A DNA stretch of 44,388 bases from a bacterium (GCA_021801565.1 JAJYXV010000005.1:1-44388), one strand, 5' to 3'. Positions 7,430 to 42,439 are shown, counted from the first letter of the stretch. Numbers and translations are program-made. The notes: generated by a model not told the origin, from the sequence alone.

Positions 7430-8062
7430 ATGAAACGTGGAAAACTTGTGGTAATTTATGGAAATATGTTCTCAAATAAAACAGGGACGTTAATTAATGA
7501 AATCGAAACGCTTCGAAATTATGGGAAAAAACGTATCTGTGTGATAAAGCCAAAAACCGATACACGGAGTGGGACTGGATTTATCAAAAATTCAAAAGGA
7601 CTGCAAATGGAAGCATTTGAAGTACCGGGAAATACTCCATCAGAGATATTTGATGTCATACGAAGAGAAGAATTAAAGCAGGGCTCTGACTTTAATATCA
7701 TCGCAATTGATGAGGTACAATTCTTTACTCCTCCTCTGTCCATATTTCAAACAGTAAAAGAACTTCTGAGAAAGGGATATGATGTGATTGTCGCGGGACT
7801 CTCACTTGATTTTAAAGGCGAGCCATTCGGAGTGACATTACAACTTATTGGACTCTGTGATGATGTAAGAGATGTGATAAATCTCCATTCACGATGTCAT
7901 GAGTGTGGTGAACAAGGTGATCTTCCTCAACGACTTGTTGATGGAAACCCCGTTCCATACAACTCTGATCAATTAAAGGTCGGCGGAGAGGAAACATATC
8001 AGGCACGATGTTATAAATGTCATGAACTCCCCGGAAAACCGGATATCGAACATGTTTCATAA
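7430..8062 (+). CDS. tdk: Thymidine kinase
   Basis: GNMFSNKT P-loop, IDEVQF, GLSLDFKGEPFG and the Zn-binding CHEC...CYKC pair. Confidence 0.93.
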   Translation: MKRGKLVVIYGNMFSNKTGTLINEIETLRNYGKKRICVIKPKTDTRSGTGFIKNSKGLQMEAFEVPGNTPSEIFDVIRREELKQGSDFNIIAIDEVQFFTPPLSIFQTVKELLRKGYDVIVAGLSLDFKGEPFGVTLQLIGLCDDVRDVINLHSRCHECGEQGDLPQRLVDGNPVPYNSDQLKVGGEETYQARCYKCHELPGKPDIEHVS

Positions 8063-8075
8063 AAATTTATATGCA

Positions 8076-8106
8076 AAAAAGCCGCTGATATTGCCAGCGG
8101 CTTTTT
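8076..8106. terminator. Bidirectional intrinsic terminator
   Basis: AAAAAGCCGCTG-N7-CAGCGGCTTTTT between convergent genes. Confidence 0.85.
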
Positions 8107-8113
8107 ATTTTAA

Positions 8114-8668
8114 TTACTCATATTTTTCCAACACAAGTGATCCATCGGAAAAGGAGAGAACTCCATCGGGTTCAATTACCCTTGGTTCATTTCCAGTTCT
8201 TTCTCCAGTGATCGAATCTTTGTCCCATATTTTTACCGGTTTGAGCCTGTCGTTTCCCTCAAATCTTGAAACACGGGACACACAAGCAACAGTTATATCG
8301 GTATCATGAGAAAAAATTTTTACCGTCCAGAATGCTTTTTCAAAAATATCGAGAAACGACTTTTTCAAAAGCTCTTCTTCTACGGTATTAACCCTTTCTG
8401 TTCCAAACTCAAATTTTACTGTCGTATAGAACATCTTTTTTTCCGACGTTCTTTTTTGGGCATACCCATTTTGAATAAACAAACCCTCTTTTTCCAAATC
8501 AAAGAAAATATTTTCTAAAGAGGTTTTTTTCCATTCATGGGATAATCCAGGAACTTCCATTCCCTTAAAACGGACAGAATCATCGGGTTTAATCCATTTT
8601 AATGTAGATGGAACAACGGTTGGATTTGTAAACGACACTGCAAAAAAAAGTTTTCTTAATTTTTCCAT
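8114..8668 (-). CDS. Hypothetical protein
   Basis: 184 aa; AAGGAGG RBS, consensus promoter and own terminator. Confidence 0.8.
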   Translation of the reverse strand: MEKLRKLFFAVSFTNPTVVPSTLKWIKPDDSVRFKGMEVPGLSHEWKKTSLENIFFDLEKEGLFIQNGYAQKRTSEKKMFYTTVKFEFGTERVNTVEEELLKKSFLDIFEKAFWTVKIFSHDTDITVACVSRVSRFEGNDRLKPVKIWDKDSITGERTGNEPRVIEPDGVLSFSDGSLVLEKYE

Positions 8669-8726
8669 CTGATCCTCCTTCGGGGGATGTTTTTTAAATA
8701 ATTAGTTGATAATTAATTCTGTTATA

Positions 8727-8755
8727 AGTATAGCATACTATATTGAATGTGTCAA
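8727..8755 (-). promoter_or_regulatory. Sigma70-type promoter
   Basis: TTGACA-N17-TATACT with extended TG. Confidence 0.8.
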
Positions 8756-8790
8756 GTATTTTCTCAATCTCTTCAAATTATGCACATACA

Positions 8791-8830
8791 TAAGAAAAAC
8801 CGCTATGTTATAGCATAGCGGTTTTTCTTA
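8791..8830. terminator. Intrinsic terminator downstream of patatin
   Basis: TAAGAAAAACCGCTATG-N6-CATAGCGGTTTTTCTTA. Confidence 0.8.
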
Positions 8831-8839
8831 TATTTCTTC

Positions 8840-8879
8840 AATCCGTATAAATCCGTTTATATTCGCATCTATCCGTGTT
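8840..8879. repeat. 10-bp degenerate tandem repeat x4
   Basis: AATCCGTATA AATCCGTTTA TATTCGCATC TATCCGTGTT. Confidence 0.6.
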
Positions 8880-8881
8880 TT

Positions 8882-9742
8882 TTAATCGTTATAGAAAATG
8901 AAGTCCATAAACTGTTCAAATGGTTTCTTTTGTGGAGGGATTGTTCCGCATCCTTTGTAAATATCACGCAACTTATTTTTTGTTTCATTCTCTCCACATT
9001 TAATAATCTCTTTTGCATCATCAAATTGAAACATCTTATATCCCAAGACGGGCGGAGTAAGTACTATATTTGCCTCTTTCAATATTCTGCGGGCAATCTG
9101 ATACTCAATAATTGAGAGTGCTTGTGGAATCATGTTATATACCTTAATCGGGTTTAATGATTCGGTTTCAAGGTTTTCCCAACGGCTTGATACGTCAACC
9201 GCAATGATGAACTCTGCTCCCATTTTTTTTACCACGTCAGCGGGAACCGGATTTACAAATCCTCCATCCATAAGCATTCGTCCATTAATAGTCACCGGTT
9301 TAAAAATTAACGGGAGTGCTGTCGATGCCTGAATTGCATCATGCAAACTTCCCGATGCAAGAATTATTTCATCACCATTTTCGACATCTGTTGCAACCGC
9401 AGAAAACGGAATTTTACAATCTTCCACACGAAATCCGCTGATTTGTTCGGAAATCATATCGAGAACCGGCTTATCTTTAAAAAGCTCCCCGTCTTTCTTT
9501 CGCACGAGATGTGAAAGACGATAAATATCTTTGTGTTCTATTTCTAAAAATAAATTCTCCAAAAATGCGATATCTTTCGTTGCTGCATAATATCCGCCAA
9601 TAAGTGCACCCATGCTCGTTCCTGCAATATAACTGATTTCAATTCCCGCTTTTTCGAGTACGCGAATAACTCCAATATGTGCAAGTCCCTTTGCCGCTCC
9701 ACCCCCAAGCGCCAATCCAACTTTTTTCGGTTTTGTTACCAT
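8882..9742 (-). CDS. Patatin-like phospholipase
   Basis: ALGGGAAKGLAHIG, GTSMG nucleophile and DGG motif. Confidence 0.93.
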   Translation of the reverse strand: MVTKPKKVGLALGGGAAKGLAHIGVIRVLEKAGIEISYIAGTSMGALIGGYYAATKDIAFLENLFLEIEHKDIYRLSHLVRKKDGELFKDKPVLDMISEQISGFRVEDCKIPFSAVATDVENGDEIILASGSLHDAIQASTALPLIFKPVTINGRMLMDGGFVNPVPADVVKKMGAEFIIAVDVSSRWENLETESLNPIKVYNMIPQALSIIEYQIARRILKEANIVLTPPVLGYKMFQFDDAKEIIKCGENETKNKLRDIYKGCGTIPPQKKPFEQFMDFIFYND

Positions 9743-9743
9743 A

Positions 9744-9877
9744 CCAAGTAGTAGAAACTCAATTGATAGTTTTTGAAGACTTTTATTTTTTTCATAGATC
9801 TGTTTTATTTAATCACCTTACTAAACTCAGTTTACTCCTTCTGCACCTGCGGTGCACATTGAGTTTTCACTACTTGG
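9744..9877. mobile_element. MITE-like element (CCAAGTAGT family), copy 1, on the patatin start codon
   Basis: 20-bp TIRs with 18/20 match: CCAAGTAGTAGAAACTCAAT / ATTGAGTTTTCACTACTTGG. CATA direct repeat on both flanks (TATG on the coding strand). Confidence 0.8.
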
Positions 9878-9943
9878 CATATATTTATACTAAAACAAAA
9901 AAGAGCTTTTTCATAATTTCAAAAAAGCTCTTTTATACTAAGA

Positions 9944-10135
9944 TTAAATTTCAAAAATACTCCTTATATATCCTTCTCCCTCATAGAATATCCCACCTGG
10001 ATTTACTAAAACTGGATCATGTGCCGCAGTAGAAATAAGCGTGATATTTTCTTTTCCAAGTTTCTTCGTTAACGCGCCAAATAATTCACTCGCTTCTTTC
10101 GAATTATCTGCCCAAAGTTCATATTTCTTTTTCAT
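9944..10135 (-). CDS. Small hypothetical protein
   Basis: 63 aa with its own TTGACA promoter-like site near 10175-10198. Confidence 0.55.
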   Translation of the reverse strand: MKKKYELWADNSKEASELFGALTKKLGKENITLISTAAHDPVLVNPGGIFYEGEGYIRSIFEI

Positions 10136-10202
10136 TTCTTTCTCTCACAAGATTAATAAAATACTGTTTTCATTATTACTCTCCATACTTTTATGTCAAC
10201 AT

Positions 10203-10234
10203 AAAAAGCCTTTTCTATTTTGAAAAGGCTTTTT
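10203..10234. terminator. Intrinsic terminator
   Basis: AAAAAGCCTTTTC-N6-GAAAAGGCTTTTT. Confidence 0.8.
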
Positions 10235-10237
10235 ATT

Positions 10238-10525
10238 TTAAACAAGTCCTAAAAACCTAATAAGATTATATCCCAAGAAAAAAACCAACAGGGATACAAA
10301 GAAGCTCATTCCAGCAACTTCTAAAGATGGGAGATCGGGCTCTCCATCTTTCCGTTTTTTTGGCTTAAACAGTACCAAAAGTACTACCCAAAATGAAAAT
10401 CCGAGAAACGGCCCTGCAATATCCTGTCTAAGATAAAGAAATACTAATGCCACAGTAGCCAAGAATCCACCAAGAATTGTTCCGAAAACAAATCCTATTA
10501 TTTTCCGTATCACGCCAACCTCCAT
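10238..10525 (-). CDS. Hypothetical membrane protein
   Basis: Three hydrophobic segments; 3 bp from the upstream gene. Confidence 0.7.
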   Translation of the reverse strand: MEVGVIRKIIGFVFGTILGGFLATVALVFLYLRQDIAGPFLGFSFWVVLLVLFKPKKRKDGEPDLPSLEVAGMSFFVSLLVFFLGYNLIRFLGLV

Positions 10526-10528
10526 CTT

Positions 10529-11050
10529 TTAATACTTCTTTAACGCGCCTCCAATACCAATAATAGAGGATGCAATCTGAAAGTGTGCAAACATCTCCTG
10601 ATGTTTCACATATCCAATGTGCGCGGCAGTGAGATGTGTTGCCGCTAAAATCGTCCATCCCCATTTCATCTTCCACATATCATTTTTTGGATGGAGTAAA
10701 TAAAATGCGATAAGCATACCAACCGAACTAAAAAATTCGAGAATGGTAAGTTGCCCTTGGAATGTAAGAAGTGCAAGTATAATTGCGATTATAAAAGTTA
10801 CACACTCAATTCCTATCTCTACTTTTCTATTTTCCTTTTTCACTACCGCCCCATATACCGTGAGAACAAATAATCCAATTTCCCCTATAGCGTATACAAA
10901 AAGGTGTAACAGAAAAAAGTAGTATATTGCGAGCACCGCAGCAATAGCTCCCATCCACCACCCAATTGGGTTTTTTCTCTCAAGAAATAACCCTACCTTA
11001 TTCGAAAAAAAGATAAGTGAGATAAGCGCCTCAAGCACCTTAATTATCAT
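10529..11050 (-). CDS. Polytopic membrane protein, possibly PnuC-like
   Basis: About six TM segments; GWWMG...YG pattern loosely resembles PnuC. Confidence 0.6.
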   Translation of the reverse strand: MIIKVLEALISLIFFSNKVGLFLERKNPIGWWMGAIAAVLAIYYFFLLHLFVYAIGEIGLFVLTVYGAVVKKENRKVEIGIECVTFIIAIILALLTFQGQLTILEFFSSVGMLIAFYLLHPKNDMWKMKWGWTILAATHLTAAHIGYVKHQEMFAHFQIASSIIGIGGALKKY

Positions 11051-11092
11051 CTTTTACCTCAAAATATTTTTTATTATTTATATTCTAAGATA

Positions 11093-11121
11093 GTTATACC
11101 TCCTAAATTGCATTCTGTCAA
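11093..11121 (-). promoter_or_regulatory. Sigma70-type promoter
   Basis: TTGACA-N17-TATAAC. Confidence 0.75.
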
Positions 11122-11126
11122 ATTTC

Positions 11127-13643
11127 TTACTTCAAAACTTTTCTCAAATATTCAGCAGTAAAGCTTCCTGCTTTTCTTGAAACTGCCTCAGGCGTTCCTT
11201 CAGCAACAATCTTTCCTCCCTTATCCCCTCCTTCAGGACCTAAATCAATCACCCAATCAGCAGTTTTTATCACATCCAAATTATGTTCGATCACAACCAC
11301 TGTATTTCCCCTATCTACTAATCGATGAAGTACGTTTAACAGCTGCTGCACATCGGCAAAATGAAGTCCGGTGGTTGGTTCATCTAGAAGATAGATCGTT
11401 TTTCTCGTGTCTCGTTTCCCAAGTTCCGCGCCCAATTTTACACGTTGCGCTTCTCCACCCGAAAGTGTCGTTGCCGACTGACCCAATTGTAAATACCCAA
11501 GCCCAACTTCGTCCAAAATATTCAACCGATCATGAAGCCATGGAATATCTTCAAAAAACTTTGTTGCTTCTTCAATCGTCATCTTCAACACGTCGTAAAT
11601 ATTTTTACCCTTATATTCCACTTCAAGTGTTTCCCTATCAAAACGTTTTCCCTTACAGACATCACATTCGACATACACCGTCGGTAAAAAGTGCATCTCA
11701 ATTGCAATCACTCCGTGTCCCTCACAGTTTTCACATCTTCCTCCTTTCACATTAAAACTAAAACGCCCTGGTTTATACCCACGCACACGCGCATCTTCAG
11801 TTGCGGTAAAAATATCGCGAACAAATGTCCATGCACCAACATAGGTCGCTGGATTTGAACGTGGCGTTCTTCCGATCGGCGATTGATCGATGTTTATGAC
11901 CCGATTAATATATTCCAATCCCAACATTCCTTTATGGGCACCAACAGAATAATTTGCTCCATTAAATTTATTTGCGAGTGTTTTCCACAGCACATCATAC
12001 AACAACGTACTCTTCCCCGATCCCGATACACCGGTAATTGCCACAAAACGACGGAGCGGAATTGAAATATCGATGTTTTGTAAATTATTTTCACTTGCTT
12101 CCTTTATTTTTAAAAACGTATGATCTTTTTTTACTCCCCTCCGTTCTTTCGGAATCTGCACATATTCTTCTCCACGAAGATATTTGAGTGTAAGTGAGTT
12201 ATTTTTTTTATCTTTTAAAATCTCAGGAATGGGTCCCTCCGCGACAATCTTTCCTCCGTGTACACCGGCACCCGGACCAATATCCACAAGATAGTCGGAC
12301 TCCCGAATTGTTTCTTCATCATGCTCCACCACAATCACCGAGTTCCCCAAATCTCGAAGTTCATGAAGTGTTTTGATGAGCTTTGCATTGTCTCTCTGGT
12401 GAAGCCCAATGGTCGGTTCATCAAGAATATATAATGTGCCAGTAAGTCGGGATCCAATCTGTGAGGCAAGACGAATACGTTGTGCCTCTCCTCCGGAAAG
12501 TGTTCCCGCTTTTCGCTCGAGAGTGAGATATTCAAGTCCTACATCAATCATAAATTTCAATCTGTTTTTTATTTCGCGCAGAGGTACTTCCGCAACTTCC
12601 AAAAGTTTTTCATTTTTTATTTTTTCCACTTCTGCAAAAAATGCATATGCATCTTTTATCGGCATCGCTACCACCGAAGAAATATTTTTCCCCTCAATAA
12701 GCACATGTAACGCTTCCTCTTTTAATCTCTTTCCCATACATTTTTCACATATTTTTTCCGACCACACACTTTCCACACCAAGCCCATGACATTCAGGACA
12801 CGCACCATAAGGACTATTAAACGAGAAAAGGCGTGGCTCTATTTCGGGAAAAGAAAATCCATCATTCGGACATGTGAATTTTGCGGAAAGTGATGTTTCC
12901 TTTTCAGTGATAATCGTTACTACATTATTTCCATATTTAAGCCCTGATTCAATTGCCTCAGAAAGACGAAGGCGATTATCTTTATTTGAGAAATCTAATC
13001 CTGTGGGAATACGGTCAACCAGAAGATCAATGGTGTGTTGTTTATATCGCGAAAGATCAATGCGATCACGAAGAGAGTAGAATTTCCCATCAACGCGTAC
13101 CTCTGAAAACCCCGCATTTAAAAAATCATAGAGCATCTGGTAGTATTCTCCCTTTCGTCCACGTACCACTGGGGCGAGAATAACGAGATTTCTTTTCTTT
13201 TCATTCTGCAAAGAAATTTGCACCGCAACATCAACAATTTGTTCATTTGTCATCTTGCGTATTTCTTTTCCACATATCGGACAAAACGGAGTTCCCACGC
13301 GAGCAAAAAGAACGCGAAGATAATCATATATTTCGGTAATTGTTGCAACTGTCGAGCGCGGATTTCCCGAGTGGCTTTTCTGATCAATGGAAATTGCCGG
13401 AGAAAGTCCCTCAATTTCATCAACATCGGGTTTATCAAGTCTCCCTAAAAATTGTCGCGCATATGCAGAAAGCGACTCGATATACCTTCTTTGTCCTTCC
13501 GCAAATATGGTATCAAACGCAAGTGACGACTTCCCCGATCCGGAAAGTCCAGTAAACACCACCATCTTATTCCTCGGAATTTTAAGATTAATATTTTTGA
13601 GATTGTGCTCTCTTGCACCCTTAATATGTATAAAGTCATTCAT
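11127..13643 (-). CDS. uvrA: Excinuclease ABC subunit A
   Basis: Two ABC cassettes ([24 protein letters not shown] twice) and Zn fingers. Confidence 0.98.
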
Positions 13644-13736
13644 ACTGTTTCTTTTTTATTAGGATTTAGAAATTAGTAATTTAGAGTTTATATACCTAAG
13701 CTCCCTTCGTTTTGGTTCGTTAGGGACTATAGAAGC

Positions 13737-13765
13737 ACTTTACGAAGAATGGTATAAAAAGTCAA
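13737..13765 (-). promoter_or_regulatory. Putative uvrA promoter
   Basis: TTGACT-N17-TAAAGT. Confidence 0.55.
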
Positions 13766-13789
13766 AAGAGTTGCATGCGCAACTCTTTT
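13764..13789. terminator. Intrinsic terminator
   Basis: AAAAGAGTTGC-ATGC-GCAACTCTTTT. Confidence 0.8.
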
Positions 13790-13838
13790 TTAATTATTAT
13801 CTAAATCAACTTTGTAAGTTCTTTGATAGTTATACTAC

Positions 13839-15728
13839 TTATTCTTCATCTTCTTCGGTGCCTTTTGATTTATACCAAAGATATAACGCATAGAGAATAA
13901 GAAAGAAAATAAAGATAACAAAAAATGTAATTCCGTTTGTTCCTTCACCAAGAGAAAGAATACTCGCAAGCAATTTCAATTGTGGAGATCCATTATCGAG
14001 AGTTGAAAATCCAAGCACACTTGGAATTTGCGCACCAGCAAGTTTGTTATAATTTTCTGCATCAAGCACATATGCATTTTCTCCGAATGAGATTGCTCCC
14101 GCTCCAGGCTTTTTTGCAACGAATCGGAATACTCCAAACACCTTTTTTTCAGTGAACCCTTCCGGATATCCAGCGGTTTTGACAATAATCCCCTTATCCA
14201 CATCATGGATATCATACTCAGGACGAATCACTGGAACCCAGTTGTCCCAATAGGTCACCGATTTGAATTCCAAAAGATCTTTTGGATATTGCAATTTCAC
14301 CTGTGCGGTATATGTCTTTTCATTTGTTCCTGGTTCGACAGTCACTATTGCATAAAATTCTTGCCCCTCTACCACAGTAAGTCTTGTCGGAGCAAAAGAA
14401 ATAATCGTTCCTGATTGTGTCTTATAATTTTTATCCACTTTCATTTCCGTCCAATCTCTCATAAGTTCATACACATCGCGGTTATCCACTTCTCCATCTT
14501 TATTAAGATCGGCAAGATTATTTTTTCGTGAGACACCCCAATTTACCATAAGCGTATTAAAATCGAGTGTTCGGGCGCCTAATACCTCGCCACGAGGCGG
14601 CTGTGGAACCGGAATTGGAGTAGGAATCGGTGTTGGTGTGGGAATAGGAGTGGGGGTCGGAATTGGAGATGGTTCATTCCCATATTGAATATCATCAAAA
14701 ACGATTATACTTTCCTCATTATTTGAATTCCTATATTTTACATATACCGTCTTCTTCCCATACCCTTCCGAAAGAATCCAAGATTTTTTATCTGTATATG
14801 CCTCCCATGATGCATCAGAAACATCTGCCTTATTTGAAATCTTCATCTGTGAAGCACTCACCGCTGTAAGTGTGAGATTCACATCACGCGTATCAGTTCT
14901 CTCTGCATCATTATTTATAATTATTTTATAACCCGCTACCGGAAGAATAGGGCCCCCTCCGGATCCACCCCCGCCACCGCCTCCACCGCCACCCCCTCCA
15001 GAATTTGTGGTTGCGGAAGTAGTTACAAACGGAGATCCTGAACCACACAAATTAAAAATTTTGATTGCAAAATAATATTTTGTGTTTGTTTCTAATCCGT
15101 TCACTGTCATTGTTTGTGTCTGTCCTGAAAATGGATGAGGGGTTCCTGTATATTGTGTAGAAATATAAAATGTTCCCTCGGTTATTTGATTTTTTGAATA
15201 ACGAAGATCAAATTCAGAAAGATCTGATTGTGTTTGTGTCTGCCAAGAAAGTGTAATAACACTTGCAGAATTTGGTGTCCCAGAAAAGTTCATTACGGAA
15301 AACGGGCTCGGACATCCTTGTCCACCCCCTCCACCACCTCCAGGAGAAACAGTAATAAATGCGATGCCAGAAAATTCACCCATAATATTGTAGAGTTTTA
15401 ATCCAAAATAGTATGTGGTGTTTGCATTCAGTCCATTCACAGTCATTGTCTGTGTTTGTCCTGAAAATGGATGAGGAGTTCCTGTATATTGCGTCGCTAT
15501 AGAAAAATTTCCATCGTTCAATGGACTTGTTGAATAACGCAATTCAAATTCAGATAAATCACTTTCTGCTGGGGTTTTCCATGAGAGAGATGCTGATGTT
15601 CCTGATATGCTACCGGTAAAGTTTGATACAGACGAAGGAACCGCGGCATACGTAAACGGCACCGAAACTACCGAAATCACGATAATTGAGATAACGGTAA
15701 AAATTGTATAAAGATGATTATTTTTCAT
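13839..15728 (-). CDS. Secreted, C-terminally membrane-anchored protein: two FN3 domains, dockerin-like motif, cohesin-like domain
   Basis: Signal peptide; duplicated FN3 module; poly-G and PT linkers; ADLNKDGEVDNRDV EF-hand loop; cohesin-like beta domain; C-terminal TM. Confidence 0.8.
   Translation of the reverse strand: MKNNHLYTIFTVISIIVISVVSVPFTYAAVPSSVSNFTGSISGTSASLSWKTPAESDLSEFELRYSTSPLNDGNFSIATQYTGTPHPFSGQTQTMTVNGLNANTTYYFGLKLYNIMGEFSGIAFITVSPGGGGGGGQGCPSPFSVMNFSGTPNSASVITLSWQTQTQSDLSEFDLRYSKNQITEGTFYISTQYTGTPHPFSGQTQTMTVNGLETNTKYYFAIKIFNLCGSGSPFVTTSATTNSGGGGGGGGGGGGSGGGPILPVAGYKIIINNDAERTDTRDVNLTLTAVSASQMKISNKADVSDASWEAYTDKKSWILSEGYGKKTVYVKYRNSNNEESIIVFDDIQYGNEPSPIPTPTPIPTPTPIPTPIPVPQPPRGEVLGARTLDFNTLMVNWGVSRKNNLADLNKDGEVDNRDVYELMRDWTEMKVDKNYKTQSGTIISFAPTRLTVVEGQEFYAIVTVEPGTNEKTYTAQVKLQYPKDLLEFKSVTYWDNWVPVIRPEYDIHDVDKGIIVKTAGYPEGFTEKKVFGVFRFVAKKPGAGAISFGENAYVLDAENYNKLAGAQIPSVLGFSTLDNGSPQLKLLASILSLGEGTNGITFFVIFIFFLILYALYLWYKSKGTEEDEE
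15097..15491 (-). repeat. Internal module duplication (15097-15155 vs 15433-15491)
   Basis: Near-identical 59-bp segments 336 bp apart, both encoding QYTGTPHPFSGQTQTMTVNG. Confidence 0.85.
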
Positions 15729-15748
15729 AACTTCAACTGTTACATTTT

Positions 15749-15777
15749 TCTTATGTTATCATATAACTTAAAATAAG
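15749..15777 (-). promoter_or_regulatory. Putative promoter of the FN3/cohesin gene
   Basis: TTGACT-N17-TAACAT with extended TG; -35 abuts the MITE target duplication (coordinates approximate). Confidence 0.5.
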
Positions 15778-15782
15778 TCAAG

Positions 15783-15931
15783 CCCAGTAGTGCCTGCCTG
15801 CGGTAGGCAGGAAAACTCAATTTTATATGTATAAACTCATGTACTCATAAAAAATCTAAAAATTTATGTATTACTTTGATATATAAAAATCTTTTTGTCG
15901 CGAAACGACATATTGAATTTCTACTACTGGG
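15783..15931. mobile_element. MITE-like element (CCAAGTAGT family), copy 2, with a nested palindrome
   Basis: CCCAGTAGTG[CCTGCCTGCGGTAGGCAGG]AAAACTCAAT ... ATTGAATTTCTACTACTGGG; 5-bp direct repeat TCAAG at 15778-15782 and 15932-15936. Confidence 0.8.
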
Positions 15932-15964
15932 TCAAGACCCCCCTATTTATTGGCCGCTAAAAGT

Positions 15965-15993
15965 AAAAAGCCCTAGAATTTCTAGGGCTTTTT
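15965..15993. terminator. Intrinsic terminator
   Basis: AAAAAGCCCTAGAATTTCTAGGGCTTTTT. Confidence 0.8.
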
Positions 15994-15998
15994 TATAA

Positions 15999-17720
15999 TT
16001 ACTTTATGAGAATCATCTTCTTTGTCGCCGAAAAATTTCCGGCCTGGATTGTATAAAAATATAATCCGGCGGATAAATTTGAAGCACTAAAAGAAGTTTG
16101 ATATCTTCCTGCTGCCTTTTCTGAATTAACGAGCATCGCTATTTTTTTGCCAAGAACATCATATACAGTAATTTTTACATTACTTGGTGCCGGCAACTGA
16201 TAACTAATAACCGTTGTTGGGTTGAATGGATTTGGATAATTCTGTTCCAACTTAAATTCGGTTGGAATTTTATTCTCATCAACACTAGTTGTGTTTCCGA
16301 TCATAAAATTCCAAACATCTGACCACTCACCCACAACACCCGCATTTCCTATCCCTCTCACTCTCCAATAATAAAGAGTGTTTGCATATAAGATAGAAAC
16401 GTTTTGGTAATTGTTTGGTGGTGTTGCAGCATATTCTAAATTTAAAAATGCATTTGTTTTAGAAATCTGCAACTCATAGTTCAACACGCCCGAGACAGTA
16501 GTCCACACAAATGAAATCGGCGTTACCATTCCAGTCGAATTATTTGCTGGTGACAAGTGAATTGGTTTAGTAATGGTTATATTATTTACCGTAGTAAATG
16601 ATCTCCACGCAGACCACCCAATGCCGCTAGCTCCAATTGACCCAAGTCTCCACCAATATATCTGATTAGATTTCAGGTTATTAAGAGTTATTGGGCTTGA
16701 AGTGTAAACGAGGTTGTTTACCAACGTTCCTGTTTGCGAGTTCTCTCGCAACTCAAGTTGATATCCAGAAATTCCAGTTACAGAAGTGTAGTTTAATGTA
16801 CCACCGTTTTGAGGAAAACCAGTCAATCCATCCGCAGGAGCACCAAGCGTCGGTGCGTCGGGAACCACCGTTCCTGTGCCAGTACTAAAACTTCTTGTAG
16901 AACTATAAGCCGATGTCTGTCCATTCTCACTCGCATTTACTCTCCAATAATAGATTGTATTGGCAAGTAAATTTGAAAGAGTGTAAGAAGTTGCACCCGT
17001 AACATTTTGATTCACAACAAATGAGGCAAACACCTGACTCGTTGAAACCTGAACATTGTAACTCACTATTCCACCGGAAACGGGAGTAACTGCATTCCAA
17101 TTTAGTGTCCCGCCATTTAGTGCAAAGTTTGTTGCGCCATCCAAAGGAGTTGTAAGAACCGGAATTCCAGGTGTTATCCCAGCTTGAGGAATATCAATAG
17201 GAGTTTCTGTACCACCGGTCACTCTCCAAATTCCAAGAATATAAACTGAAAAATTTCCAGCTGCTTGTCCCGGAGATTGTGAAAATGAAATCTTTAATTG
17301 GTCGGCATTAAAAGCTGTTGCACTGAAAACATTCACCAAATAATCGGTGACAATTCCGTTGTTAGACAACTCAACTAATCCACTTGTCCCCTCTACTCCT
17401 GTTGAATTAAAAAATCCAATCCCCATTTTCATTTTTAATGAAGATGAAGGACATGCGGCTCGAATCTTTAACTGTGTCTGAACTGGCATGTTTTGAACAG
17501 CAAACGCTTTTCGAAATTTCACATAAGGCACGTCACCTGTTTGTGGATAACTGATTACAACACTTCCGCTGAACAAATAGGCATTCGCCAAATTGTAAGA
17601 CGAAAGAGAAGCTCCGCCGGTTGCATTACTCGTTCCAAATGGAATATACCCAGTGTCCTGAGCAAAAATGTTTGTTACAGTTACAAAAAGAATTACGAAA
17701 AGAAATAACAATCGTTTCAT
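15999..17720 (-). CDS. Secreted FN3-like repeat protein with a T9SS (Por) C-terminal sorting domain
   Basis: Signal peptide; three modules ending YWRV/WWRL; C-terminus LEQNYPNPFNPTT...VYDVLG...GLYFY...KKMILIK. Confidence 0.9.
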   Translation of the reverse strand: MKRLLFLFVILFVTVTNIFAQDTGYIPFGTSNATGGASLSSYNLANAYLFSGSVVISYPQTGDVPYVKFRKAFAVQNMPVQTQLKIRAACPSSSLKMKMGIGFFNSTGVEGTSGLVELSNNGIVTDYLVNVFSATAFNADQLKISFSQSPGQAAGNFSVYILGIWRVTGGTETPIDIPQAGITPGIPVLTTPLDGATNFALNGGTLNWNAVTPVSGGIVSYNVQVSTSQVFASFVVNQNVTGATSYTLSNLLANTIYYWRVNASENGQTSAYSSTRSFSTGTGTVVPDAPTLGAPADGLTGFPQNGGTLNYTSVTGISGYQLELRENSQTGTLVNNLVYTSSPITLNNLKSNQIYWWRLGSIGASGIGWSAWRSFTTVNNITITKPIHLSPANNSTGMVTPISFVWTTVSGVLNYELQISKTNAFLNLEYAATPPNNYQNVSILYANTLYYWRVRGIGNAGVVGEWSDVWNFMIGNTTSVDENKIPTEFKLEQNYPNPFNPTTVISYQLPAPSNVKITVYDVLGKKIAMLVNSEKAAGRYQTSFSASNLSAGLYFYTIQAGNFSATKKMILIK

Positions 17721-17787
17721 GAACGACCTCCTTATTTTGTTTTATTAATTAAAAAGTAAAAATTTGAGTACTTTTAGCACTGGTTAC

Positions 17788-17816
17788 AATATACTACAGA
17801 ACTCTCAATTTGTCAA
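17788..17816 (-). promoter_or_regulatory. Sigma70-type promoter of the T9SS-CTD gene
   Basis: TTGACA-N17-TATATT; AAGGAGGT RBS before ATG 17720. Confidence 0.75.
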
Positions 17817-17818
17817 CC

Positions 17819-17842
17819 AAAAACGGCTATTTCGCCGTTTTT
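17819..17842. terminator. Intrinsic terminator
   Basis: AAAAACGGC-N6-GCCGTTTTT. Confidence 0.65.
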
Positions 17843-17921
17843 GCCTCTCCCTTCTTACAACCCCATCTTTTCACATATATTCCTGTCTATACTCTTTTCT
17901 TATATTGAAAATATAATACAC

Positions 17922-17945
17922 GCCACTATGACGCGTCATAGTGGC
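17922..17945. repeat. CTATGACGCGTCATAG-family palindrome, copy 2
   Basis: Perfect 24-bp GCCACTATGACGCGTCATAGTGGC, 1 bp after the stop of the TrpR-like gene. Confidence 0.9.
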
Positions 17946-17946
17946 A

Positions 17947-18381
17947 TTAGTATGATACATACGTCGTTCCAAACTTTGTCCTTACCCTTCTTCTTTTTAT
18001 CTGGCGATTGGGAACAGATGACACTTGGCTTTTTACCTGCTTCCCATTACTCTCTTCGCGATAACTTTGATATTTATCCCTATTTATTGACTTCACAATA
18101 CCGCTGATTGTTTGTGGTGAAATCCACAATTCATTACCAATTTCTTTATAACTTTTTCCAGAATTAATCATCTGAGACACAGCTACACGCATTATTATAT
18201 TATGACACTCATAAGAGGTAATAAACGATTGTAGAGATATCTTATCTTTTACAATGTTTTTCCAACATTCAGATTCCCACTCTTTTCGAGAATTATATTT
18301 ACTTATCGGCGGTATGGCGGAAAAAATATTTTTTCTACCTTTCTTCTTTGTTTTATATGAATTCTCTTCCATAAATACCAC
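17947..18381 (-). CDS. TrpR/YerC-like helix-turn-helix protein
   Basis: IIMRVAVSQMINSGKSYKEIGNELWISPQTISGI resembles the TrpR-family HTH; start may be 18372. Confidence 0.7.
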   Translation of the reverse strand: MVFMEENSYKTKKKGRKNIFSAIPPISKYNSRKEWESECWKNIVKDKISLQSFITSYECHNIIMRVAVSQMINSGKSYKEIGNELWISPQTISGIVKSINRDKYQSYREESNGKQVKSQVSSVPNRQIKRRRVRTKFGTTYVSY

Positions 18382-38432: not shown

Positions 38433-38555
38433 CCCGTTAGAAATAGATCGCGACTAAACGACCCATGGTAGATTCTATTACGACTGAATTTTTCATTATA
38501 TATTCCATAATTGTTTTTTATTTTACATACGATCGCGATTTCTAACGGGATTCAT
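38428..38555. mobile_element. Start-codon-embedded TIR element at rplX, including flanking repeats
   Basis: Perfect 14-bp IR ATCCCGTTAGAAAT (38431-38444) / ATTTCTAACGGGAT (38538-38551); TTCAT at 38428-38432 and 38551-38555. Confidence 0.88.
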
Positions 38556-42283: not shown

Positions 42284-42439
42284 CCCGTTAATAATAGGAA
42301 ACGTTTACGTTTCCGCCTGCCTGCGCAGGCAGGTACGTTTTTTTACATGAATTTCGTCCTTTTTTTGTCTGTGTATAAAACATAATTTTATTTTCTTGTT
42401 TCTTTAATAATGATAAAAACTATTATGAACGGGATTCAT
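42279..42439. mobile_element. Start-codon-embedded TIR element at rplB, including flanking repeats
   Basis: 15-bp IR with one mismatch: ATCCCGTTAATAATA (42282-42296) / TATTATGAACGGGAT (42421-42435); TTCAT on both flanks. Confidence 0.88.

Follow-up and report, generated by a model that had tools for sequence, protein, structure and literature searches.

Miniature inverted repeats on start codons and -35 boxes of a Patescibacteria genome, and a candidate 310-bp full-length form whose only gene encodes a GIY-YIG nuclease

The 44,388-nucleotide stretch GCA_021801565.1 JAJYXV010000005.1:1-44388 (the window), from a Patescibacteria genome of 0.74 Mb in 16 contigs (G000), carries two short inverted repeats, one of which lies on the start codon of a patatin-like phospholipase gene and the other on the predicted -35 box of a gene for a fibronectin-III (FN3) repeat protein. 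The initial annotation read both as copies of a transposable element of the miniature inverted-repeat type (MITE) that duplicates expression signals on landing, and took this habit as a sign of survival bias. The locus therefore raises the question of what these elements are, why they come to rest on such signals, and what moves them. The reading that we favor, to which we assign a probability of roughly 60%, is that they are non-autonomous copies of a family of the ultra-small Patescibacteria, with terminal inverted repeats (TIRs) and target site duplications (TSDs), the full-length form of which encodes a GIY-YIG nuclease.

That both window repeats are mobile MITE copies is virtually certain. 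An element of the family has one 20-bp G arm (CCNNGTAGTGAAAAYTCRAT, middle ..AGTGAAAA..) and one 20-bp A arm (CCNNGTAGTAGAAAYTCRAT, middle ..AGTAGAAA..), and its gene-less (MITE) copies are small and non-coding, at about 60-156 bp. The first copy in the window and its surroundings comprise the following features.

9744..9877, minus strand: copy 1, a gene-less MITE member of 134 bp with arms, TSD and empty sites in relatives
9744..9763, plus strand: A arm of copy 1, CCAAGTAGTAGAAACTCAAT read inward
9858..9877, minus strand: G arm of copy 1, CCAAGTAGTGAAAACTCAAT read inward
9740..9743, minus strand: proximal TSD of copy 1, CATA (TATG on the coding strand), containing the working patatin start codon 9742-9740
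9878..9881, minus strand: distal TSD of copy 1, CATA (TATG on the coding strand), with the ATG 9880-9878 behind the original upstream context AGTATAAATA
9827..9880, minus strand: upstream open reading frame (uORF) MPSSENSMCTAGAEGVN*, opening at the distal in-frame ATG 9880-9878
9842..9856: subterminal GC hairpin TGCACC-TGC-GGTGCA, adjoining the G arm of copy 1
8882..9742, minus strand: patatin-like phospholipase, the host gene, 286 aa, intact (Pfam Patatin, E = 4e-32)
9899..9934, minus strand: terminator of the gene upstream of patatin, in relatives 11-14 nt before the patatin ATG

When CCAAGTAGTAGAAACTCAAT is compared with the reverse complement of the opposite arm CCAAGTAGTGAAAACTCAAT, 18/20 positions are identical, and the two mismatches, at arm positions 10-11, are the G/A asymmetry found throughout the family and no sign of decay. 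Read along the patatin strand (minus), the element begins with its G arm and ends with its A arm against the patatin ATG, giving the layout ...AGTATAAATA[TATG]-element-[TATG]GTAACA. The corresponding site is empty in three members of the same genus (G001, G002 and G003), in which terminator, 11-14 nt and ATG lead without a break into the patatin gene. Copy 1 is likewise missing from a contig that is 98.7% identical over 9430-9727 (463 nt long, from an unrelated groundwater metagenome), so that the site is polymorphic among close strains. The TIRs, the TATG flanks, the duplicated patatin ATG and the in-frame upstream ATG with its short product, all of which the initial annotation had described, were confirmed at their coordinates, and the empty sites that it had proposed to look for in relatives exist for both copies.

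The second copy lies upstream of the FN3 gene and is laid out as follows.

15783..15931, plus strand: copy 2, a gene-less member of 149 bp, running from a G arm with a hairpin insert to an A arm
15783..15821, plus strand: G arm of copy 2, made up of CCCAGTAGTG, the insert and AAAACTCAAT
15793..15811: GC hairpin CCTGCC-TGCGGTA-GGCAGG, 19 nt, splitting the G arm of copy 2 at arm position 10
15912..15931, minus strand: A arm of copy 2, CCCAGTAGTAGAAATTCAAT read inward
15896..15910: subterminal hairpin TGTCG-CGAAA-CGACA, adjoining the A arm of copy 2
15778..15782, minus strand: proximal TSD of copy 2, TCAAG (CTTGA on the minus strand), providing the TTGA of the -35 hexamer
15932..15936, minus strand: distal TSD of copy 2, TCAAG (CTTGA on the minus strand)
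15753..15781, minus strand: predicted FN3-gene promoter, TTGACT, 17 nt, TG-n-TAACAT, the best promoter-like site upstream in a scan
13839..15728, minus strand: FN3 repeat protein, 629 aa, the host gene downstream of copy 2

On the minus strand, the gene-side duplicate is read as CTTGACT, and the earlier statement that the TCAAG duplication copies the TTGA of the -35 element agrees with the predicted promoter. In the congener G003 the same region reads ATTGACT, 17 nt, TG-n-TAAGAT with no element, so that both an empty site and a conserved predicted promoter are found there. Copy 2 is the older insertion, given that it is still carried by a strain that is ~91% identical (about 9% diverged). Its 19-nt insert, which the initial annotation did not mention, forms a hairpin at the side of the terminal stem, and the subterminal hairpin at 15896-15910 recurs in most copies of the family with compensatory changes.

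The annotation's expectation of further copies was borne out by a genome-wide search for the arms. G000 contains at least 27 elements of 68-156 bp and one of 309 bp, and the arm pattern matched 21 times in this genome compared with 0 for the reversed control; insertion counts here and below are based on curated coordinates in G000 plus strict arm patterns. Across the order the arms are present in 72/401 genomes, with a patchy distribution and reversed-pattern controls of roughly zero, and strict mini-elements also occur in metagenome-assembled genomes (MAGs) labelled Paceibacteria, Doudnabacteria, Jorgensenbacteria and Liptonbacteria. Of 57 elements, 53 combine a single G arm with a single A arm. 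The interiors of most copies cannot be aligned; what is conserved are the arms and the subterminal GC hairpin. Positions 3, 4, 15, 17, 18 and 20, at which the arms vary, agree within an element to an extent that 0/2000 shuffled pairings reach; the arms thus pair, in a 20-bp stem with a conserved central G.T plus A.C defect. Both window copies form this arm stem, with folding z-scores of -5.2 and -5.8. No Rfam covariance model matched at its gathering score, with chance-level hits only up to E = 5.

In several copies a 19-21-nt GC-rich hairpin lies within the G arm, exactly at the conserved G/A mismatch (arm position 10). Beside the one at window 15793-15811, such inserts occur in G000 at C8:12094-12133, C8:152424-152442, C5:38795-38813 and C12:215991-216034, with further sites at C12:23671-23690, C8:33819-33838 and C5:14483-14503. 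At least three versions exist, with compensating changes in their stems (CCTGCC..GGCAGG, CCGCCTGCC..GGCAGGG and CCCGTCTGCC..GGGCGGG), and the hairpin marks either a structural subfamily with a three-way junction or a nested mini-element. Elements are also clustered head to tail, 4 nt apart (TAAG, TTTG), at G000 C6:2650-3180 and C9:700-950. A number of short contigs, as well as contigs of G385 and G376, terminate inside an arm; the family thus interrupts assemblies, and the true number of copies is probably higher.

The full-length form spans 292-331 bp, and its sole gene encodes a GIY-YIG protein of ~85 aa (UPF0213/Slx1-like). The unit in G000 is built as follows.

G000 C6:2693-3001: full-length element of 309 bp, consisting of G arm, 9 nt, ATG, 85-aa open reading frame (ORF), TAA, 2 nt and A arm

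Its ORF is a GIY-YIG domain (Pfam PF01541, E = 1.3e-18) in which the conserved residues Tyr, Tyr, Arg, His/Asn and Glu are present. The nearest solved relatives are the UPF0213 proteins BH0048 and EF2693, the match to SLX1 being faint; the UPF0213 structure 1ZG2 matches with E = 2e-6, and the protein amounts to a bare core of ~85 aa. The catalytic pattern YxY..YxGxT..R..EHN..E..RExYLK is kept in 30/30 homologues, almost all with intact ORFs. Among the best 30 homologue loci, drawn from many genera, 13 bear this arm family over a span of 297-331 bp, each with one G arm and one A arm; a looser measure of flanking repeats gives 14/30 and a span of 287-331 bp. Most of the remaining loci among these 30 have other TIRs of 14-24 bp, likewise beginning CCC, and in each of at least six TIR types the enclosed gene belongs to this nuclease family, with nothing else inside. 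We consider it very probable that the window MITEs and the 310-bp GIY-YIG unit belong to one element family. The initial annotation had suggested looking for an autonomous insertion sequence (IS) with these ends: a candidate with the same ends was indeed found in the ~310-bp unit, but it encodes a GIY-YIG nuclease, and none of the transposase models searched (IS1380, DDE_Tnp_1, rve and Y1_Tnp) fits. Our literature search, in which subscription journals lay outside the coverage, returned no description of MITEs in the Candidate Phyla Radiation (CPR) or of prokaryotic elements with TIRs and TSDs whose only product is a GIY-YIG protein.

The possibility that MITEs arise solely as full-length copies decayed in situ was rejected, as near-identical MITEs occupy different sites (C8:11984 and C12:215887; C12:102273 and C12:106210; C6:344, C6:3006 and C9:798). 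A second GIY-YIG gene, sharing 78% identity with that of C6, is directly preceded by a tandem array of four or five micro-hairpins of ~32 nt at G000 C13:8376-8560; these micro-hairpins consist of the outer halves of the two arms only (CCCNGTAGTAGAAGC-GTT-GCTTCACTACNGG).

One of the TIR types around GIY-YIG homologues, ATCCCGTTAGAGA/ACCCCGTTAGA, is the arm of another MITE family of the window, with these two members.

38433-38549: member of the window's other MITE family, arms CCCGTTAGAAAT.. / ..AACGGG
42284-42433: member of the same family, with the same arms

Arms of the ATCCCGTTAGAGA and ACCCCGTTAGATA kind flank GIY-YIG homologues at L060, L063, L066, L070, L109, L111 and L118-L121. Both arm types thus flank homologues of the same nuclease gene, and the two families of the window are sister lineages; the agreement between them, which the annotation had counted as that of independent witnesses, loses this value. 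In relatives, at L113, L114, L125, L128 and L129, further types, ATCCCTCACCCTTGAAAAAC, ACCCCCACACTCAAAAACTACT, ACCCTGCACCATAAATA and ACCCTCCCAACTTTTTGGAT, flank ~85-aa GIY-YIG homologues with spans of 288-300 bp. That all of these begin (A/T)CCC suggests a large superfamily.

To describe target choice, TSDs from G000 and its relatives were pooled with those of 31 independent loci from the species collection. They are 4 bp long as a rule, occasionally 3 or 5 bp. Of 53 clean 4-bp TSDs, 26 are TATG/CATA, which makes up 1.0% of intergenic 4-mers (p = 2e-37), and 11 are TTGA/TCAA, compared with 1.2% (p = 5e-11), where both p values show the evidence at its strongest, given that some insertions may be orthologous between genomes. 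The two words together thus account for 37/53 (70%), as against about 2% of intergenic 4-mers, the minority including TTTA, CTTG, AAAA and CGTA. The habit of duplicating expression signals, seen at first in the window copies, proved general, with 13 of the ~22 non-nested copies in G000 placed exactly at a start codon or at a -35 hexamer. TATG copies have struck the genes for patatin, ribosomal protein S12, MgtC and a class-II aminoacyl-tRNA synthetase at their start codons. Nine TTGA-type TSDs in G000 have the reading TTGAC[ATG] and are followed, after 16-18 nt, by a hexamer of the form TAnnnT or AAAAAT; the copies concerned precede the genes for S2, GroES, S20, IF-1 and the FN3 protein, among others.

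Orientation is as restricted as the target words. In 27/30 insertions at ATG sites (p = 8e-6), and in 23/24 when gene-less copies are taken alone, the A arm adjoins the host ATG and the G arm is the upstream one, seen in the direction of the host gene; among the 31 mini-elements of the independent sample, TATG was found 11 times and CATA 0 times. In a 60-bp hairpin that is nearly symmetrical, this fixed orientation would not be expected from the need to restore an ATG alone. The choice of both target and orientation is probably intrinsic to the element.

Two elements of G000 (C5:14474-14621 and C5:15767-15890) interrupt two neighboring type-IV pilin-like genes exactly at the Gly/Phe-Thr junction of prepilin cleavage. 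Their TSD is TTTA, and the old leaders, MRRDDG/ and ...KGAG/ (the slash standing for the junction), are stranded upstream, with new leaders, ...RVFTTG/ and ...QVSTTG/, encoded by the elements. The arm end ACT-ACT-GGG gives T-T-G, and hence the obligatory -1 glycine of prepilins.

The relation between the nuclease gene and the captured start codon is equally regular. In 16/21 full-length copies the TSD includes an ATG, and in 16/16 of these the nuclease gene lies immediately upstream of a host gene that is read in the same direction and has the downstream ATG copy as its start (DnaX-like and L3-like N-termini, ORFs up to 490 aa). In 10/16 the frame of the upstream ATG continues across the arm into the nuclease ORF, the read-through sequence being M-P-[SG]-S-E-N-S-x-x-I-M-F-Y-Y-V-Y, and at L057 and L072 the captured ATG is the sole ATG before the GIY motif. 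The nuclease stop falls 7-35 nt ahead of the element end or overlaps the host ATG. With its ORF read from the captured ATG, the element can dispense with its own promoter and start site. The uORF of copy 1 begins with MPSSENS, the arm-encoded leader common to the whole family, and copy 1 is a deletion derivative in the canonical position and orientation that retains this leader as its uORF.

In sum, the element inserts with a strong preference for T-A-T-G, mostly in start codons, and for T-T-G-A(C) in a -35 hexamer, with its G arm upstream, and duplication of the 4 bp (rarely 3 or 5) leaves the host gene with an intact ATG or -35 box. In full-length copies the upstream ATG copy starts the nuclease ORF, by in-frame fusion or by coupling via a short uORF. 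We propose the following mode of transposition. The nuclease may recognize the arm pair, probably as an extruded hairpin or cruciform with its central mismatch, and could make 4-nt staggered cuts both at the element borders and at T-W-K-R targets; host ligase and polymerase would then complete a cut-and-paste event, for instance by sticky ends, with one TSD copy carried along. No span longer than about 330 bp was found between properly oriented arm pairs at roughly 130 loci. Among the transposase models, DDE_Tnp_1 and rve are absent from G000 and were found in only 2/17 and 6/17 MITE-rich genomes, respectively; Y1_Tnp is missing from 6/17, and the only Y1 transposase of G000 belongs to an IS200-like unit with ends unrelated to the arms. 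The nuclease thus stands as the only element-encoded candidate. We put the chance that the GIY-YIG protein is the mobilizing enzyme at about even, and hold somewhat more tentatively that the elements form an unrecognized class, the smallest autonomous one at ~300 bp, in which a bare GIY-YIG nuclease would recognize the arm pair as a structure and cut and paste the element at 4-nt staggered sites, while the element borrows the ATG of the host for its nuclease and returns a duplicate.

Long autonomous copies were also sought in 20 regions beside seemingly unpaired arms, which turned out to be short elements with a degenerate partner, or contig ends. The IS200-like unit lies at G000 C8:146400-147000 and carries a 145-aa Y1 transposase between hairpins GGAAACCCCGCAC.. 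/ ..GGAGTCCGGGG; a GGGGAAA hairpin remnant similar to those of this unit abuts elements at C12:179832 and on C9.

Several observations weigh against the reading that we favor, and some of them point to a conventional transposase, such as an IS1380-like DDE enzyme, that would move the arms in trans with the GIY-YIG gene as a passenger or nested selfish gene. We know of no GIY-YIG enzyme that transposes, and an 85-aa catalytic core with no obvious DNA-reading domain cannot carry out strand transfer. TIRs with short TSDs are the classical signature of DDE transposases, and CC ends with duplications of 4-5 bp fit the IS1380 family of ISfinder. A cognate full-length copy is present in only 8 of the ~20 MITE-rich genomes, in one of them as a pseudogene. 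Most of the genomes are fragmented MAGs, from which a repeated IS may have been lost, and several contigs stop in an arm; the transposase search was confined to the IS1380, DDE_Tnp_1, rve and Y1_Tnp models. Small GIY-YIG genes are so common, with homologues at E <= 1e-15 in 214/401 genomes of the order, that their co-occurrence with the arms is weak evidence, and the single full-length copy of G000 is not at an ATG. The p values carry the caution given above, and the promoters, leaderless starts and re-initiation are predictions only, since three metatranscriptomes of the same study contained no reads of the organism over 8000-18000. An IS1380 parent, suggested by the CC ends and the 4-5-bp TSD, was nevertheless rejected: its transposase model (NF033539) gave nothing above the cut-off in 20 MITE-rich genomes, the one weak match, in G003, being unrelated to the arms. 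The scarcity of DDE_Tnp_1 and rve, the upper limit on arm-pair spans and the enclosure of one nuclease family, and nothing else, by at least six TIR types also speak against a conventional mover, and a passenger gene would hardly be expected to have an ORF that runs from a captured ATG across the arm. On balance, we think it unlikely that a conventional transposase in trans accounts for the family.

The explanation given in the initial annotation was survivorship, by which insertion is near random and purifying selection spares only those copies that happen to restore an ATG or a -35 box. G000 is about 86% covered by ORFs, disruptive insertions would be lost from essential genes such as those struck here (S12, S2, S20, IF-1 and GroES), and a minority of copies do have other TSDs. 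However, at copy 2 some 35 bases between the -35 box and the terminator upstream could apparently have been struck without harm, yet exactly TTGA/C was used, a register that recurs nine times in G000, and neither the concentration of 70% of TSDs in two words, nor the 27:3 orientation overall and 23:1 among gene-less 60-bp copies at ATG sites, nor the design of the nuclease ORF is expected of random insertion. Survivorship as the whole explanation is thus improbable; it contributes, as purifying selection surely removes insertions within genes, but does not suffice, and in our view the habit belongs to the element superfamily itself and has been sharpened by selection. A third view, that the repeats are regulatory or structural modules (hairpins in 5' untranslated regions, RNase targets or uORF control) kept for the benefit of the host, could draw on the stable 20-bp stem, the conserved uORF leader MP[GS]SENSI and the position at highly expressed genes. 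It seems very improbable to us, given that the elements differ in presence between congeners and near-identical strains, have TSDs, nested or tandem copies and an unconserved interior, are patchy across the order, and match no Rfam family.

The family of mobile elements that we favor resembles several known systems in part. Correia elements (CREE/NEMIS), which are confined to Neisseria and have a TA TSD, a 26-bp TIR and no known protein-coding full form, share with the present MITEs a length of 100-150 bp, TIRs in two variants, target duplication, a place beside genes, transcripts that form a long hairpin, the altering or creation of promoter elements and the lack of a known transposase. The elements described here differ in their 4-bp TATG/TTGA duplication, their arm sequence and their Patescibacteria host, and in start-codon targeting and ATG capture, neither of which is known from Correia elements. 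REPINs, which leave no TSDs and are moved by RAYT (Y1/HUH) transposases, are likewise short hairpin doublets with co-varying arms and a variable loop, in many gene-less copies with few protein-coding partners; here, in contrast, 4-bp TSDs are the rule, and the one Y1 gene of G000 lies in the unrelated IS200-like unit. IS1380 elements have ends beginning CC and duplications of 4-5 bp, as here, but measure 1.6-2 kb compared with about 310 bp, and their transposase is missing as described. Selfish elements with a GIY-YIG nuclease are known in the homing genes (Seg/Mob of T4, I-TevI), which are copied by repair into an allelic site and have neither TIR nor TSD, and in the Penelope-like retroelements, which also require a reverse transcriptase. 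Unlike the homing genes, the present family occupies many different host sites per genome, each with TIRs and a TSD, and unlike the nucleases of both groups, which have extra DNA-binding domains, its protein is the bare core of ~85 aa.

Just beyond copy 1 lies a further indel polymorphism, a segment of 301 nt that is missing in a near-identical strain (run X9) and in G003.

9931-10231: 301-nt segment with a 63-aa ORF (9944-10135) that has no Pfam match
10199-10172, minus strand: strong promoter-like site within this segment
9899-9934 and about 10198-10240: two copies of one terminator-like hairpin bounding the segment

If the nuclease moves the element, GIY-YIG would join DDE, DEDD, HUH, Ser, Tyr and Cas1 as a chemistry of prokaryotic transposition, the lower size limit for autonomous elements would be set anew, and the widespread orphan family UPF0213 may have found a function; a compact insertion tool that preserves expression signals is conceivable. 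Whatever the mover, a minimal genome has tolerated insertions on the start codons or -35 boxes of genes for S12, S2, S20, IF-1 and GroES. The 5' ends of its genes have been rewritten by added uORFs and N-terminal extensions, which matters for the annotation of gene starts in CPR genomes, and in two pilin genes of G000 the whole prepilin leader peptide has been replaced by the element.

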